This document shows positions 34,017-42,481 of a stretch of DNA of 64,000 nt, in pieces. Below the pieces are notes generated by a model that had not been told where the DNA came from, searched no databases, and saw only the letters and a list, made by a program, of their open reading frames with translations. Position 1 is the first letter of the stretch. The number at the start of each line of letters is the position of its first letter. Source of the DNA: Patescibacteria group bacterium (lineage in GTDB: Bacteria; Patescibacteriota; Microgenomatia; Curtissbacterales; GWA2-41-24); contig JBBTUN010000004.1 of the NCBI GenBank assembly GCA_038063735.1, positions 12,111 through 76,110 of the forward strand, in the 5' to 3' direction. The position numbers were made by a program, and so were the translations under genes.

Positions 34017-35191
34017 GAAAAATATTAGTATTTTTTTCTACACTTTTTATAACCTCAGTTTTTTGCATATCGATTATCCGTGCGGTATCCCTAGAAGATT
34101 GTGAAAAAAATCCGGATAGCAATCTAGGCGATTGTATAAACCTGTTAACCTCAAAAGTAAGCGATTTAACTAGTCAGAAAAAAACCCTCTCTTCCCAAAT
34201 AAGCCAATTCGATACACAACTCAAAATAACACAGTTAAAAATAGCGGATTCCGAAAAAACTATTGCTCTGTTAGAAAAAGAAATAGGAATTTTGGGCTTC
34301 AGAATTGGTTATGTAACAGACTCAATTGATAAGCTTGAGGGGTTGGTAAAGCAAAGAATAGTTGCAACCTATCAACAAAGTTTTGTTTCCGATCTAGAAC
34401 TGGTTGCCGCTTCAAATGATTTCTCAGACCTGATTCTCAGGCTTCAATATATTAAACAAGTTCAGGAAAATGACAAAAAAATCTTGGCAAGTCTCCAAGC
34501 AACAAAAACAAATTATGCAAACCAAAAAGACGAAAGAGAAACAAAGCAAGCCGCAATCGAAGAACAAAAAACTAAACTGGAAGCCTTAAAAATAAACTTG
34601 GATAAACAAAAGACAGAGAAGCAGGCATTTTTAGAGATTACCAAAAACGATGAATCCAGATATCAAAAATTGCTGGCTGAAGCACAAGCAGAGCGGGCAA
34701 TTGTTTTTGGAGGGGGAACGGACATATTTATGCGTGATGTAAAACAAGGCGACACAATTGGATCAGTCGCATCCCACGGCGCAAGCCCGGGCTGTTCAAG
34801 CGGCGCCCATCTTCACTTCGAAGTACACAAAAACGGTAACCTGGAAGACCCAAACAATTATTTAAGATCGGGCGGTTTTAGTTATTCTTATCCCGATTCC
34901 CAATACTCTACTTATGGCACAATTAACCCTCGTGGTGACTTACCATGGCCGCTAAATGAGCCGATAACCATAAATCAGGGTTACGGGTCACACAGCTTTG
35001 CAAAATCATTTTATTACAATGGAATTCATGCAGGTATAGACATGGATTCATCATCAAGTTCTGTTAAAGCGGTAAAAGATGGAAAATTATATGGAGGCTC
35101 TTACAATTGTTCGAAGGGGAAATTATACTACGCAAAAGTCGAGCACAGTGATGGGCTTACAACTTGGTACTTACACATCATCCCCAACTAG
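34013..35191 (+). CDS. M23 family peptidoglycan metalloendopeptidase with N-terminal coiled coil (EnvC/PcsB-like FtsEX partner)
   Basis: Signal/TM sequence, a long coiled coil, then M23 motifs (HLHFEVHKNG, GIHAGIDMD). Overlaps ftsX by 4 nt. Confidence 0.8.
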   Translation: MRKILVFFSTLFITSVFCISIIRAVSLEDCEKNPDSNLGDCINLLTSKVSDLTSQKKTLSSQISQFDTQLKITQLKIADSEKTIALLEKEIGILGFRIGYVTDSIDKLEGLVKQRIVATYQQSFVSDLELVAASNDFSDLILRLQYIKQVQENDKKILASLQATKTNYANQKDERETKQAAIEEQKTKLEALKINLDKQKTEKQAFLEITKNDESRYQKLLAEAQAERAIVFGGGTDIFMRDVKQGDTIGSVASHGASPGCSSGAHLHFEVHKNGNLEDPNNYLRSGGFSYSYPDSQYSTYGTINPRGDLPWPLNEPITINQGYGSHSFAKSFYYNGIHAGIDMDSSSSSVKAVKDGKLYGGSYNCSKGKLYYAKVEHSDGLTTWYLHIIPN

Positions 35192-35226
35192 TTGACAAAA
35201 CTACTACAAATAATTATGGTCATTCT

Positions 35227-36078
35227 ATGCCCAAACAAGTACTAGTTGTACTCGCGTTTTTGTTTTTCTTATTTTTTGCTCCGAAAAATCTCCTTGCAGC
35301 AAACATTACAATAAATGAGTTTTTAGCAGAGCCTGCAGGAGACGAGAAAGAATGGATCGAGATAAAAAGTGATGAATCTGTAGATCTCTCAAATTATTAT
35401 CTTAAAGACAAAGTCGGAACTAAGAAAGATTTAGGCACCATACAGAACTGCGGCAGTTACTATTTGTGGGAGCTATCTGGCGGAGCAGGTTATTTAAATA
35501 ATTCTGGAGAAGAATCAATTTTTCTCTACGACCCACAAGATGCACTTGTTGACTCATACGAAAACTGGACCAACCCTGGTGAAAGCAAAACCTTGAGTAG
35601 GATCCCAGATGGAAATGGAGATTTTCAGGAAGCAGACGTCACGAAATGTGCGCAAAATACTGCTCCGGCAGATCCAACGCCGTCTCCGGACCCAAGCCCT
35701 ACCAGCGCACCTTCGTCAACGACGTCCACCAAGTCTCCAAGTCCAACACCAAAAAGCTCGCCTAAAAGCACTGCAAAATCCCCATCACCTACCCCTAAAC
35801 CATCAACCCAACCCAAAGAATCACCTCAAGTGCTTGGTAAAAATGATATTGCAGATTCAATATCGGCGCTTTCCGGCGATCAATTTTTAAATAGCCCGTC
35901 CCCAAATCCAAACCTATATCAAGCAGCCATAAGCAGTAATCTTGCCATAGTATTTATAGGTGTTGGTGCTGTACTAATTGGACTTTCGTTCGGCATGTAT
36001 TTATGGTACAAAAAAAGTTCAGAAAGACCGGAAATTAGTAAGGAAAAGGACAGATTTGAAGAAAACAAAGAAGAATAA
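35227..36078 (+). CDS. lamin-tail-domain (LTD) surface protein with Pro/Ser/Thr-rich linker and C-terminal TM anchor
   Basis: Signal peptide followed by an LTD core (NITINEFLAEPAGDEKEWIEI...NYYLKDKVG), a low-complexity PTS linker and a C-terminal hydrophobic helix plus basic tail. The start was chosen at ATG 35227. Confidence 0.6.
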   Translation: MPKQVLVVLAFLFFLFFAPKNLLAANITINEFLAEPAGDEKEWIEIKSDESVDLSNYYLKDKVGTKKDLGTIQNCGSYYLWELSGGAGYLNNSGEESIFLYDPQDALVDSYENWTNPGESKTLSRIPDGNGDFQEADVTKCAQNTAPADPTPSPDPSPTSAPSSTTSTKSPSPTPKSSPKSTAKSPSPTPKPSTQPKESPQVLGKNDIADSISALSGDQFLNSPSPNPNLYQAAISSNLAIVFIGVGAVLIGLSFGMYLWYKKSSERPEISKEKDRFEENKEE

Positions 36079-38727: not shown

Positions 38728-39192
38728 ATGGCAGTAGAGGTTAAACACATTTGTACCATATCCAAGCACGAATTCAGGCCTAAAATCGTGCCGCCTGGCC
38801 ATCTAAGCATAAAAACATACGAAGATGAACATGGAAACGATTTGGCTGCGTTACACATTCGCTGTAAGCCTTCCGGTGTTGGTGTTGTCACTCCTTTTGA
38901 AAAATTTGGTGAAAGCAATGTCTCCGTCCATATTAAGGATTGGACAAAACCAGACGAACGTCCACTCATCCAGATCACAAGAGAACCGGTTTTAATAAGC
39001 GGCACCCAATACGTTGAGTTGGTTTCTAGAAGAACTACAAGAAGGCTAAGGGCAATGCATGTAGCCGAAAAAGAAACACCCGATAAAACAAAAGAAGCGT
39101 CAGCCGAAGAAAAAGTTGCAGAATTTGTAACAACCCCAAGAGATAGGAAAATCGCAAGTGCTACAAGTTCCCTTCGCGCAAGTTCGCACTGA
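38728..39192 (+). CDS. hypothetical protein (154 aa) with basic disordered C-terminus
   Basis: Strong RBS GAGGTGA 7 nt upstream and a rho-independent terminator downstream. A longer antisense ORF (38679-39218) overlaps it, so the strand choice rests on the RBS and terminator. Confidence 0.45.
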   Translation: MAVEVKHICTISKHEFRPKIVPPGHLSIKTYEDEHGNDLAALHIRCKPSGVGVVTPFEKFGESNVSVHIKDWTKPDERPLIQITREPVLISGTQYVELVSRRTTRRLRAMHVAEKETPDKTKEASAEEKVAEFVTTPRDRKIASATSSLRASSH

Positions 39193-39343
39193 TCCACTTT
39201 CTTACTAATTCGTCCCAATTGACTTAAACTCGGTAAAAAACTTTAATTGCTTTGCGAAGATTTTTGGCCTGCTCAATCGACTCTGCCCAGTCAAAAATCT
39301 AAATGCACTGCCCAAATACTGTATTAATTAAAAAATTAGGACG

Positions 39344-39368
39344 AACCGCATTTGGCGGTTTTTTTTAT
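39344..39368 (+). terminator. rho-independent terminator (AACCGC-attt g-GCGGTT followed by a T9 run)
   Basis: 6-bp GC-rich stem, 5-nt loop and a run of 9 T. It lies between ORF 38728-39192 and the strong RBS of the 39408 gene. Confidence 0.6.
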
Positions 39369-39407: not shown

Positions 39408-39974
39408 ATGATAATTAATTCAAGAATTGCTCTTTCTCTGGCATCGATAGCCGCGGCAGGTTCATTGGTTGCAGGTGCAACCTTTGCCTTCTTTAGTGAT
39501 TCAGGAACAAGCAGCTCTAACTTGTTTAGCGCTGGCACGGTCGATCTTCTTCTCAGCGATGATGACCAAACAAATCTTGAGAATGTGACGGCAACCTTTG
39601 GTTCTGCAAATATGGCACCAGGTGATTGTACGACAGGGACTTTGAACATAAAAAACAACGGTACTATCGCAGCAAACCATGTGGATATTAGCATCACAAA
39701 TTCAAACGATGCTATGGATGATTATCTTAGAATCGACACACTTACCTATGATGCTGTTAATCAACTGCCATCACTTACAGACGGTCAGCCAAACACGCTT
39801 AAGGACTTAGATGACTTAGAAAATGATCCAGCAGCCAACCTAGCCTTAACGGATTTAGGGGTGAATCACCCGCTTGTTATGGGAGTATGTCTAGATGAAT
39901 CAGCACCAGATTCATTGCAGGGCGCAAGTAACGACATGACAATGACGGTTCTTTTAGATCAAGGACCCCATTAA
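39408..39974 (+). CDS. camelysin/TasA-family (peptidase M73-like) secreted protein with SipW-cognate signal peptide
   Basis: Strong RBS AAAGGAGGTGA. The N-terminus AGATFAFFSDSGTSSSNLFSAGTVDLLLS matches the SipW-dependent signal / TasA N-terminal consensus (G.TxAyFSDte...NtFtaGtLdL). An NMAPGD motif lies downstream. Confidence 0.65.
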   Translation: MIINSRIALSLASIAAAGSLVAGATFAFFSDSGTSSSNLFSAGTVDLLLSDDDQTNLENVTATFGSANMAPGDCTTGTLNIKNNGTIAANHVDISITNSNDAMDDYLRIDTLTYDAVNQLPSLTDGQPNTLKDLDDLENDPAANLALTDLGVNHPLVMGVCLDESAPDSLQGASNDMTMTVLLDQGPH

Positions 39975-40073
39975 CTGAATAGAGAGGACAGGCTCTTTAA
40001 AATTTAGTTTAGAAAATTTGCAGACTGGGCGGGAGGTCCTGTCCTAATTCACTCTCGCCCACCTGCTCTTATA

Positions 40074-41435
40074 ATGGAAAAAACGTTTAAGTACTTTAAC
40101 TATTTTTTTGCGCTAATTTTGATTTGCGCCGCAATATTTTTGGCGTATATTGCCGTGCCCTATTTTGGCAACAAAGCACTAATTGTCAAAACCGGTAGTA
40201 TGTCGCCAAAAATTAAAGCCGGCGATCTGGTTATCATCAACGCACAAAAAATACTGCTTACCCCTGCACCCATACCGCTTGCGACATACCACACAGGAGA
40301 CGTCATTGCATTCAAAGACCTAAATAATCCAAATGTACTCATTACTCACAGGATAATAAAAAGCGAGGTAAAAAATAGTGAAGTGTATTTCCAAACAAAG
40401 GGAGATGCCAACAACTCTCCGGATACGGCGCTTGTACCCCAGAAAAATATTATCGGGAAATCTACCTTTACAATTCCGCAATTAGGAAAACTTTTTGCAT
40501 TTGCCAAGACAAAGCAAGGGTTTGCGCTTTTGGTACTTATACCGGCAGTATTGGTAATTCTTATAGAGGTCACAACCCTTATAAAAGAATCAATAAAGAT
40601 ACAGCGTGCCAGAAGAATGCTACAGCAAGACCCTGATGAAAATGTTGAAAAAAGAGAATTACTTGGCCCCATTGGCCTGAGGATATTAATGCCCTTTGTT
40701 GTCGGTTTAATGTTTTTCCACAACACCTACGCATTTTTCTCAGATTCAGCATCTTCTATCAACAATACCTTTACAGCAGCCTCCACCTTTCCATCCCCAA
40801 GCCCAAGTGGCGAAGCAACTCCATCTGCAACCCCAGGTACATCACCTACCCCAACACCATCACCCACAAACATAGCAAATCACTTATTAATCAGCGAGGT
40901 TCAAATTACAGGCGGTCCAGAACACACGACAGAAGACTTCATTGAACTTTACAATCCGACATCGTCAAACATTAGTTTAAACGGATTTAAGCTGGTAAAC
41001 AGAACAACAGCAAGTTTAACTGATAACTCAATCAGAGTATTTACGACGCAAACTATTCCGGCTCATGGATATTTTCTATGGTGTAGTTCAACGAAAGCAA
41101 CCCTAATAACTTGCGATGATTCAACCACTGACACCCTAGCCAATGATGGAAGCGTAGCCATACGACAAGGAGAGCTGAATACTGGGACAATAATAGATGC
41201 TTTGAGTTGGGATTCTTCTGTAAGTTCACTAAAAGAAGGAACAGAATTCTTTCCTAATCCTGGTGCAAATCAGAGCTTGGAAAGAAAAGCCTTCTTGACA
41301 TCAGATGCCGCTTCTATGGCTGGAGCAGACCTCACGAAGGGAAATGGATTTGATACAGACAATAACTCAACCGACTTTATTCTCAAGATCTCATCCGAAC
41401 CACAAAATTCAACAAGTTCAACAGAAACGCCGTGA
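40074..41435 (+). CDS. in-frame fusion of a SipW-type (archaeal-like, S26B) signal peptidase to a SipW-cognate signal peptide, PT-linker and lamin-tail domain
   Basis: Residues 1-175 carry an N-terminal TM, the catalytic-Ser motif KTGSMSP, a conserved ITHRI and a C-terminal TM. This is followed by a basic loop, a hydrophobic stretch and TYAFFSDSASSINNTFTAAST (SipW-cognate motif), then a PSPSPS linker and the LTD core (LLISEVQITGGPEHTTEDFIELYNP...FKLVN). No stop codon separates the parts. Confidence 0.6.
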   Translation: MEKTFKYFNYFFALILICAAIFLAYIAVPYFGNKALIVKTGSMSPKIKAGDLVIINAQKILLTPAPIPLATYHTGDVIAFKDLNNPNVLITHRIIKSEVKNSEVYFQTKGDANNSPDTALVPQKNIIGKSTFTIPQLGKLFAFAKTKQGFALLVLIPAVLVILIEVTTLIKESIKIQRARRMLQQDPDENVEKRELLGPIGLRILMPFVVGLMFFHNTYAFFSDSASSINNTFTAASTFPSPSPSGEATPSATPGTSPTPTPSPTNIANHLLISEVQITGGPEHTTEDFIELYNPTSSNISLNGFKLVNRTTASLTDNSIRVFTTQTIPAHGYFLWCSSTKATLITCDDSTTDTLANDGSVAIRQGELNTGTIIDALSWDSSVSSLKEGTEFFPNPGANQSLERKAFLTSDAASMAGADLTKGNGFDTDNNSTDFILKISSEPQNSTSSTETP

Positions 41436-42481
41436 AACACATAAAATCTAAATTATTTAAAATACTTGCCATAAACCTCTCACTTATTTTGGCAATCAGC
41501 TTTATCGCACCAAAAGCTTTCGATTCGTCAACTGTTCTGGCAATTGGAGATCTTGCAGTCGACTGGGGCGTGCCGGAAGGCAACCCGATATTTACGATCA
41601 CTAATATGGCTCCCGGTCAAACAGAAACAAGAACGGTAAGCGTTACCAACACAGGTTCCGGTATTCGTCCGGTCGGTATCCGTGGAGTCAAAACTTCCGA
41701 AGCAGGCAACATTTCTACTGTTCTTAATATAACCATCAGCCTGGGCGCCACAGACCTTTACGGTGGTACAAGTCCAACCGGCCCCAAAACTCTAGCAAAC
41801 TTCTTCACAGAATCTGCGGGCATTAACGGCATATTTTTATCCAACATCAACTCCGGGCAAACTGTAAATTATATTGTCAAAGTAAATTTCCAAAATTCCG
41901 CAGGCAACGAATTCCAAAATTCACAAGTGATTTTTGATCTTATTATTGGCATTAGCATAGACCTGCCGCAAGAATGCGAAGCAATGCAATTTTCTGGTAG
42001 TCCAATATTTGGCACGTCACAAGGTGACAGCTTAAAGGGCACACCGAATAACGATCTAATAATTGGTTTTGAGGGTGGCGACTCAATCGACGGCAAAGGG
42101 GGAGACGATTGTATCCTTGGAGGCATTGGTGGTGACTCCTTGAAAGGTGGAGAAGGAAATGATTTTGTATTTGGCAACGAGGATCACGACAGCCTCAAAG
42201 GCGGAAGCGGGGTCGATTTATTAGTAGGCGGAGCCGGTCATGATTCTATATACGGAGAAGGCGGTAGTGATAAATTAGTTGGAGAAGACGGCGATGATTC
42301 TCTTCACGGTGGTGGCGGGGACGACGAACTACAAGGAGGGGACGGAAAAGATAGCCTCAAGGGTGGGGGACAAAACGACACATTAATTGGTGGTGCCGGC
42401 TCCTTTGATAGTGCAAACGGTGAAGGCGGTACGGACGTATGCGTTGCTGAATCCGAAAAAAACTGTGAGCTTGACCCCTAA
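41432..42481 (+). CDS. secreted TasA/camelysin-like protein with C-terminal RTX-type Ca-binding GGxGxD repeats
   Basis: Signal peptide with an AFDSST segment and an N-domain motif FTITNMAPGQTETRTVSVTNTGS resembling the camelysin/TasA core. The C-terminal roughly 130 aa hold tandem nonapeptide repeats (GGDSIDGKGGDDCILGGIGGDSLKGGEGNDFVFG...). Confidence 0.55.
   Translation: MKHIKSKLFKILAINLSLILAISFIAPKAFDSSTVLAIGDLAVDWGVPEGNPIFTITNMAPGQTETRTVSVTNTGSGIRPVGIRGVKTSEAGNISTVLNITISLGATDLYGGTSPTGPKTLANFFTESAGINGIFLSNINSGQTVNYIVKVNFQNSAGNEFQNSQVIFDLIIGISIDLPQECEAMQFSGSPIFGTSQGDSLKGTPNNDLIIGFEGGDSIDGKGGDDCILGGIGGDSLKGGEGNDFVFGNEDHDSLKGGSGVDLLVGGAGHDSIYGEGGSDKLVGEDGDDSLHGGGGDDELQGGDGKDSLKGGGQNDTLIGGAGSFDSANGEGGTDVCVAESEKNCELDP

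Follow-up and report, generated by a model that had tools for sequence, protein, structure and literature searches.

Can a signal peptidase and a protein bearing the kind of signal peptide that it cuts be made as one polypeptide? This question is raised by positions 40074–41435 of the forward strand of a 64,000-nucleotide stretch of DNA (the window throughout) from contig JBBTUN010000004.1, a metagenome-assembled genome (MAG) contig of an ultrasmall bacterium of the Patescibacteria group. The initial annotation, made from the letters of the window, had read this region as a SipW-type signal peptidase joined in frame to a protein with a SipW-type signal peptide and a lamin-tail domain (LTD). 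We found a single uninterrupted open reading frame (ORF) of 453 amino acids there, with an ATG start and without a stop or frame break. Every element that had been listed, from the first transmembrane (TM) segment and KTGSMSP through the second TM segment, loop, hydrophobic stretch, motif, and linker to the LTD, lay where it had been placed. An intact peptidase, a basic loop, a signal-peptide-like segment, a TYA/FFSD..S..N.F.A motif, a linker, and an LTD are combined in a single chain, and this joining was borne out when we checked for assembly artefacts, for the SipW boundary, and for split orthologs. The system is clearly of the SipW/TasA/TapA kind in a fused arrangement that appears to be undescribed; the protein itself carries the database name “MAG: signal peptidase I [Patescibacteria group bacterium]” (NCBI).

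The peptidase domain

Residues 1–170 (40074–40583) form a SipW-like signal peptidase I domain of the endoplasmic reticulum (ER)/archaeal type. This domain scored above the cut-offs of TIGR02228 (sigpep_I_arch; 99.2 bits over residues 11–168, cut-off 51.85) and of Pfam Peptidase_S26 (PF10502; 25.0 bits, cut-off 22.9). Because it reached 104.8 bits over residues 30–189 with the Bacillus SipW equivalog model NF046067, below the 190-bit cut-off, we call the enzyme SipW-like and not SipW; despite that score it keeps the SipW-like traits of a two-TM architecture (TM1 at about residues 9–29, TM2 at about residues 149–170) and a similar genomic role. The KTGSMSP motif holds the candidate catalytic Ser42 (40197–40199), with His92 at 40347–40349 and Asp111/Asp117 further on. 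A phmmer search of the PDB aligned residues 10–160 with human SEC11C and SEC11A at the serine of GSM(S/E)P, the histidine of (T/V)HR, and the aspartate of GD(A/N)N. Ser42 in GSMSP, His92 in THR, and Asp111/117 in GDANNSPD match these SEC11A/C motifs, with His in place of the LepB-type Lys. In alignments of 28 and 53 homologs, Ser42, His92, and Asp117 were invariant and Asp111 was at least 90% conserved. An AlphaFold2 (AF2) model gave a predicted local distance difference test (pLDDT) score of ~90 across the peptidase core, and the best PDB match of this model in Foldseek was SEC11C (7p2q_A; E 1.2e-06; template modelling score normalized to the target, TM(target), 0.60). Judged by these residues, the peptidase looks catalytically intact. 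No second S26 gene was found within the 64-kb window.

We also considered whether residues 176–260 could be an ordinary part of a SipW-family peptidase, as the initial annotation had allowed, and rejected this. The SipW and archaeal signal peptidase models end at about residues 168–189, the loop beyond them is hypervariable, and SipWs encoded as separate genes end about 30 residues after TM2.

Conservation of the fusion and its split counterparts

The fusion recurs in other genomes. The identical 453-amino-acid ORF was present on at least seven contigs from several independent runs, with the same neighbors throughout (among them Logan SRR32696710, SRR32696680, and ERR3858120, and ENA ERZ1292625 “Hain_H41”). 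The same architecture was seen in about 50 of the 120 best homologs, from Curtissbacteria, Levybacteria, Chisholmbacteria, and unnamed MAGs, at 33–63% identity. We then searched 1.84 billion cluster representatives exhaustively with HMMER, using residues 1–245 only as the query and clusters defined at 50% identity, and examined the best 150 representatives. A regular expression found the internal motif in 109 of these and about 10 more were recognized by eye (~80%); of the 150, 24 have the size of a stand-alone SipW (at most 235 amino acids). Because ~80% of the best 150 representatives carry the internal motif, fusion is the majority state in this peptidase clade, and its occurrence in more than 100 clusters is far beyond chance. 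Third-party annotation (TPA) MAG records assign several loci with close LTD or fusion homologs (L006, L007, L008, and others) to “uncultured Gammaproteobacteria”, “Pseudomonadales”, or “archaeon”; these labels look mis-binned or mis-classified because L006 has a full Patescibacteria-type operon.

Orthologs with the two halves as separate genes, which the initial annotation had proposed looking for, exist at L001, L002/L003, L049, and L055 with no change in gene order. A contig scan keyed on the LTD motif DFIELYNPT returned mostly unrelated LTD proteins (Myxococcota, Bacteroidota, and others) and only about eight informative loci. Locus L001 encodes a camelysin/TasA-like protein (197 amino acids), SipW (a 206-amino-acid ORF), the LTD protein P0039 (259 amino acids), and an RTX protein, which is the order of the window, and its sipW TGA overlaps the ATG of the LTD gene (ATGA). 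The split state was also present at L002/L003 (Roizmanbacteria, protein P0060), L049, L055, and L072. Stand-alone LTD proteins such as P0039, P0060 of Roizmanbacteria, and P0085 of Woykebacteria are 43–55% identical to residues ~200–453 of the fusion over a shared region that comprises the signal peptide, the motif, a P/T linker, the LTD, and a C-terminal …QPQNSxSxxExP. These Patescibacteria proteins lie directly downstream of sipW as separate genes with an N-terminal signal peptide, whereas here the two are fused, and that N-terminal signal peptide is homologous to the internal segment of the fusion (e.g., MKRILVHALFLSLVAGVTLRLTHS cut FFLDTAQSTSNVFAA). Split and fused SipWs were interleaved in a neighbor-joining tree of the peptidase domain (a rough tree without support values), suggesting repeated fusion or fission.

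Behind the same unit of peptidase, loop, signal peptide, and motif, homologs carry other cargo. We detected RTX repeats, fn3/purple-acid-phosphatase-N and Ig-like domains, a pectate lyase in P0194, and, in P0183, a camelysin/TasA-like domain (PF12389, 22.7 bits; …ITNA cut YVSDEESSSENTFSTETLDFSL) followed by an LTD, while the cargo of P0084 (680 amino acids), P0088, P0093, and P0096 had no Pfam match. All of this cargo is of extracellular type, and the TasA-like domain of P0183 belongs to the canonical SipW substrate class. Interchangeable extracellular cargo is what would be expected of an export-and-cleavage signal and is hard to fit with an integral part of the peptidase.

Internal signal peptide and predicted cleavage site

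Hydropathy analysis revealed three hydrophobic segments in the fusion protein, the third of them only about 12 residues long, with a polar c-region of some 5 residues behind it. The basic, cytoplasmic loop that precedes it, KESIKIQRARRMLQQDPDENVEKRELLGPIGLR (residues 171–203; 40584–40682), has 8 K/R against 6 D/E and would serve as the n-region of an internal signal peptide (40683–40733) with the h-region ILMPFVVGLMFF (residues 204–215) and the c-region HNTYA (residues 216–220). Among 51 fused homologs, 49 have a net positive charge in the loop between TM2 and TM3 (median +4), as a cytoplasmic n-region should; this loop ranges from 14 to 91 residues across homologs and is not conserved in sequence. 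The Curtissbacteria homolog P0010 has an in-frame insertion in this loop, RHPEPFDCHSERSEESQDKLREGSRFF, that resembles a translated repeat element, and the entry P0043 is the C-terminal half of P0010, called from a start within the same insertion; the cytoplasmic loop therefore tolerates arbitrary sequence.

By the −3/−1 rule we predict a cut between Ala220 and Phe221 (40733/40734), within the cleavage-region stretch TYAFFSDSASSINNTFTAAST (residues 218–238, within 40683–40787). Across the 109 fused cluster representatives, the residue before the cut (P1) was always A (81) or S (28), P3 was T/S/G/A in all but one (108), and the second residue after the cut (P2′) was aromatic, Phe or Tyr, in 93. 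The n-h-c organization of a signal peptide is present: a basic loop, a 12-amino-acid h-region, HNTYA and then FFSDSASSINNTFTA, small residues at P3 and P1, and a (F/Y)(F/Y)xD…S..N.F.A region. An aromatic P2′ is reported to make the TasA site unsuited to LepB-type cleavage and to account for the dedicated SipW (PMC10269814). This signal peptide is internal, starting at about residues 171–204 after two TM helices, and its non-N-terminal placement is the novel aspect of the protein. In the topology of SipW the N-terminus is inside, the catalytic domain outside, and the C-terminus inside, and a third span would run from inside to outside; the scissile bond would therefore face the active-site side. 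We infer that cleavage occurs at Ala220/Phe221, in cis or in trans.

The post-cleavage motif and the lamin-tail domain

Residues 221–238, FFSDSASSINNTFTAAST (40734–40787), make up a conserved motif that we regard as a putative donor-strand mimic like that of a TapA-type primer, given its conservation and its likeness to the TasA-like protein encoded next to it. Asp224, Ser228, and Asn231 are invariant or at least 90% conserved, and conservation reaches to about P16′ (D224, S228, N231, F233, A235), beyond what the peptidase cleft requires. After the predicted cut, the LTD half would begin with FFSDSASSINNTFTA, which is identical at 9 of 15 positions (60%) to FFSDSGTSSSNLFSA, the mature N-terminus of the adjacent TasA-like protein; beyond this stretch the LTD half goes into its linker and the TasA-like protein into a jelly-roll domain (GTVDL…). 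Mature N-termini were also more alike within than between operons (identity 0.55 for same-operon and 0.46 for cross-operon pairs over eight operons; permutation p = 0.027), which is suggestive only. Within the 64-kb window, only the fusion ORF and the adjacent TasA-like ORF carry this motif.

The motif is followed by a flexible Pro/Thr/Ser-rich linker (residues 239–265; 40788–40868; pLDDT <50) and by an extended, Ig-like LTD (residues 266–453; 40869–41435, with the stop at 41433–41435), in which TTEDFIELYNP occupies residues 284–294. The Pfam LTD model (PF00932) matched residues 268–379 with 40.1 bits, above its cut-off of 34.3, the AF2 model had a pLDDT of ~90 over the domain, and Foldseek matched it to the Ig-folds of lamin A/C and B1 (TM(target) 0.6–0.74). 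The C-terminus of the fusion (window ~41390–41432) and of nearly all homologs is a strongly conserved …S(Q/E)PQNSxSxxE(T/I/S/A)P; in the multi-LTD proteins P0063 and P0095, this motif ends a domain ahead of a linker.

In Bacillus subtilis, the SipW cut leaves TasA residues 28–38 directly at the new N-terminus, where they form the donor strand that polymerizes the fiber; TapA, whose mature N-terminus resembles a donor strand and leads into a self-complete Ig-like domain, nucleates fibers (PMC9674648, PMC10151520). By analogy, our proposal is that the LTD half would play the part of TapA, as a primer or cap that supplies a donor strand and bears an Ig-like adhesin or tip domain. The N-terminal strings of TasA and TapA that we set beside the motif are consistent with the residue numbers in the TasA and TapA papers.

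Proposed processing and alternatives

We consider it probable, at roughly 65%, that the SipW-like domain cleaves the internal signal peptide and thereby releases a TapA-like, donor-strand-mimicking LTD protein that primes a TasA-like fiber. The precursor would be a three-pass membrane protein in which TM1 runs from inside to outside, the catalytic domain lies outside, and TM2 returns to the inside. The basic cytoplasmic loop would then lead into the internal signal peptide, which would re-export the rest of the chain, and the peptidase of the same molecule or of a neighboring copy would cut past Ala220. The product would be a secreted protein of ~24 kDa that begins with FFSDSASSINNTF and continues through a flexible P/T/S linker to an LTD with a complete Ig-like fold. 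Its N-terminus may mimic the donor strand of the TasA-like subunit encoded just upstream, such that the released protein could prime or cap the TasA-like fiber by donor-strand complementation, as B. subtilis TapA does, with the LTD displayed as an adhesin or tip. The used signal peptide would stay tethered to the peptidase as a third helix, the enzyme would go on to process TasA-like subunits, and the fusion would hard-wire 1:1 production and co-localization of peptidase and primer.

Several observations weigh against this reading. The initial annotation had matched the internal segment to the SipW-dependent cleavage-region consensus; the motif and the P3/P1 residues are indeed present, but the model for such signals, TIGR04088 (cognate_SipW), gave 14.5 bits on the isolated segment, under its cut-off of 19 (E 0.03), in an alignment that covers only model positions 14–32, the cleavage-region half. 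With this score below threshold, what identifies the segment as a SipW-type signal peptide is its homology to the signal peptides at the N-termini of the stand-alone orthologs. Residues 215–263 had a pLDDT <50 in the full-length AF2 model (28 sequences), as did residues 220–234 in a model of residues 1–250 (53 sequences), and neither model predicts the scissile bond docked in the active site, although the pLDDT of TM3 rose from ~59 in the former to ~77 in the latter with its deeper alignment. After a cut in cis, the tethered signal peptide could in principle inhibit the enzyme. The TasA-like protein is too divergent for a match to solved TasA structures, phmmer against the PDB having returned only spurious FEZ-1 matches, so the donor-strand analogy rests on Pfam/NCBIfam membership and motif likeness. 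The LTD is not homologous to TapA, and no TapA family appeared among the Pfam/NCBIfam matches. The comparison of mature N-termini between operons is a small test (n = 8), and recognition by the peptidase would give the same outcome as a donor-strand role.

The fusion might instead stay uncleaved, with the third segment as a permanent anchor and the LTD and donor-strand-like motif displayed while tethered to SipW, as the base of a fiber or as an adhesin. Such an anchor would suit the AF2 placement of TM3 beside the other helices (pLDDT ~77) with the motif undocked from the active site, the description of B. subtilis TapA as a fiber anchor co-localized with the membrane (PMC10151520), and the need of Patescibacteria for some means of holding a fiber on the cell. 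We nevertheless think it unlikely, as a 12-residue core with a polar c-region has the geometry of a signal peptide and is short for a stable span, in the split orthologs this sequence is an ordinary signal peptide at the N-terminus, the strict A/S at P1 and T/S/G/A at P3 over more than 100 divergent fused clusters would go unexplained without cutting, and steric hindrance would make it hard for a donor strand that begins right at the membrane to enter a subunit. Another enzyme might also do the cutting: general signal peptidases in other systems cleave internal signal peptides located behind TM segments, as in viral polyproteins at the ER, and the P3/P1 rule is common to all type I signal peptidases. 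The fusion could then be a device for co-expression or membrane insertion only, with a housekeeping peptidase doing the work. This is improbable in view of the aromatic P2′ of 93 of the 109 representatives, a residue reported as LepB-incompatible for TasA (PMC10269814), of the restriction of the motif to the fusion and the adjacent TasA-like ORF in the 64-kb window, and of the lack of any other S26 gene in the window, which is the part of the genome covered here.

The initial annotation had also raised a cryptic internal start. The internal signal peptide contains an in-frame ATG, Met206 (40689–40691), with GAGGA 5 nucleotides before it (GAGGA-N5-ATG), and the annotated start of the fusion gene is without an obvious Shine–Dalgarno (SD) sequence, so an internal start is possible in this particular gene; a start codon conserved across the family was rejected because most homologs have L or I in place of Met206. 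That the halves are made separately in this way, leaving the in-frame fusion without functional consequence here, is very improbable: the product would have no charged n-region and an h-region of only 9 residues, true split operons use different frames with an ATGA overlap, and the frame kept open across a variable loop of 14–91 residues in more than 100 clusters would have no explanation. Least credible is an artefact of assembly or sequencing, a lost stop or a frameshift that merged adjacent genes, which was the other alternative of the initial annotation and which we reject almost entirely. Split operons do have a 4-nucleotide overlap, so that a 1-nucleotide error could in principle fuse the frames, but the identical ORF recurs on those seven or more contigs from several runs, the fused state is shared by the ~50 divergent homologs and by more than 100 clusters (50% identity) that stem from many projects and assemblers, and the loop is a proper positively charged linker unlike out-of-frame sequence.

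Release of the LTD protein by the SipW-like domain remains the reading that we prefer. A stronger version of it, which we offer tentatively and hold to be possible but doubtful, is a self-contained cassette in which each molecule cuts itself once in cis, keeps the spent helix, and acts as the site where TasA-like subunits are processed and assembled into a fiber on the released primer. Given the interchangeable passengers (LTD, RTX, pectate lyase, fn3, TasA-like), such a cassette would amount to a general and hitherto unrecognized export and priming strategy of Patescibacteria. If true, this would be “Rosetta-stone” evidence that SipW and the fiber primer (TapA in Bacillus) are one physical unit.

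Relation to known systems

The locus resembles tapA-sipW-tasA of B. subtilis in having a dedicated ER/archaeal-type peptidase beside camelysin/TasA-family subunits, substrates with an A/(A/F)FxD…N.F.A cleavage region and an aromatic P2′, and an accessory protein with an Ig-like domain and an N-terminus that, here, may be donor-strand-like; tapA and sipW are translationally coupled in B. subtilis. It differs in that a single polypeptide unites peptidase and accessory protein, the third hydrophobic segment being an internal signal peptide, the order is tasA-like, sipW::accessory, and RTX, the accessory domain is an LTD, and the host is a Microgenomates-type Patescibacteria MAG. The stop-start overlap of tapA and sipW was earlier read as a hint of functional association (PMC9674648, PMC10151520). 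The fusion gives independent genomic support for SipW and a fiber-priming protein acting together, which in B. subtilis was proposed from overlapping genes alone.

The fold and the Ser-His-Asp motifs are shared with SEC11A, SEC11C, and archaeal signal peptidase I, but the protein differs from SEC11 in its second TM helix, as in SipW, and in its fused cargo; SEC11 is part of a multi-subunit complex, and we know of no case in which it is fused to a substrate. Streptococcus pyogenes SipA is without the catalytic residues and serves as a chaperone for a sortase-dependent pilus, whereas here Ser, His, and Asp show no variation and the fiber is presumably of the TasA type (donor strand). The likeness to SipA/LepA, a signal-peptidase homologue essential for pilus polymerization (PDB 4n31), lies in a signal-peptidase fold encoded in a surface-fiber operon, and the structure was matched in Foldseek with E 7.9e-05.

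A processing enzyme covalently joined to its substrate through a recognized signal is rare. In the literature that we searched, whose coverage is incomplete, we found no description of a signal peptidase fused to its own substrate, nor any paper that joins SipW with a lamin tail domain or discusses TIGR04088-type signals in Patescibacteria. Literature on enzyme-substrate fusions among exosortases and archaeosortases and on internal signal peptides with self-cleavage contained no description of a SipW-LTD architecture that we could find. A PNAS 2022 survey noted TasA homologs in Patescibacteria with nothing on the peptidase. The view of the initial annotation that the arrangement is undescribed agrees with this incompletely covered literature, with the qualification that the protein is already in databases as “signal peptidase I”. 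With more than 100 clusters at 50% identity, the fusion defines a large gene family whose only current annotation is that name. Patescibacteria are thought to be host-dependent episymbionts whose adhesion mechanisms are poorly known, and the family points to TasA-type donor-strand fibers tipped or primed by lamin-tail domains for surface attachment in these bacteria. As a single polypeptide, the fusion would also be a simple experimental handle on the specificity of ER-type signal peptidases and on cleavage in cis or in trans.

Operon neighbors

Immediately upstream of the fusion, a gene at 39408–39974 (+) encodes a camelysin/TasA-like fiber subunit of 188 amino acids (PF12389, E 9.5e-13) with a strong SD sequence, AAGGAGG, and an N-terminal SipW-type signal peptide (…GATFA cut FFSDSGTSSSNLFSAGTVDL). 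This protein scored 25.4 bits against TIGR04088, and 29.6 bits with its N-terminal peptide alone (cut-off 19). Such a TasA-family gene next to the peptidase was also present at L001, L002, L004, L005, L006, and L010. Between this gene and the fusion lies a structured intergenic spacer of 99 nucleotides (39975–40073, +; minimum free energy −35.2 kcal/mol, z = −3.53, with 0 of 200 shuffles as good), which might set a high ratio of subunit to peptidase and primer. A terminator-like hairpin with a T-run was detected at 39343–39361, just upstream of the TasA-like gene.

Downstream, and overlapping the stop of the fusion by 4 nucleotides, a gene at 41432–42481 (+) encodes a secreted protein that has RTX calcium-binding repeats (HemolysinCabind, E 8.5e-25) and is weakly TasA-like toward its N-terminus. 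Its N-terminal signature NMAPGQTETRTVSVTNTGS, NMAPGxxxTxTxxxxNxG, matches the TasA-like gene (BLAST E 0.01), and its signal region is degenerate (APKA/FDSS). An RTX-type protein occupied the same operon position at L001 and L004, and the product in the window may be a calcium-binding fiber subunit.

Sortase genes were observed within a few kilobases of the TasA-like/SipW/LTD operon at L002/L003 (2101–2649, −) and L004 (8525–9037, −). We rejected sortase involvement for the system in the window, where no sortase-like TLxTC box was found; the LTD proteins have no LPXTG-like tail. The ORF next upstream of the TasA-like gene (38728–39192, +; 154 amino acids) is without a Pfam match or signal peptide, is a called gene in four independent contigs, and is overlapped by a minus-strand ORF of 179 amino acids. 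A second LTD protein of 304 amino acids is encoded further upstream (35164–36078, +). It has an ordinary signal peptide of the AxA type and a long linker rich in P/S/T and, in contrast to the SipW-linked LTD, is tethered to the membrane by a TM anchor at its C-terminus.

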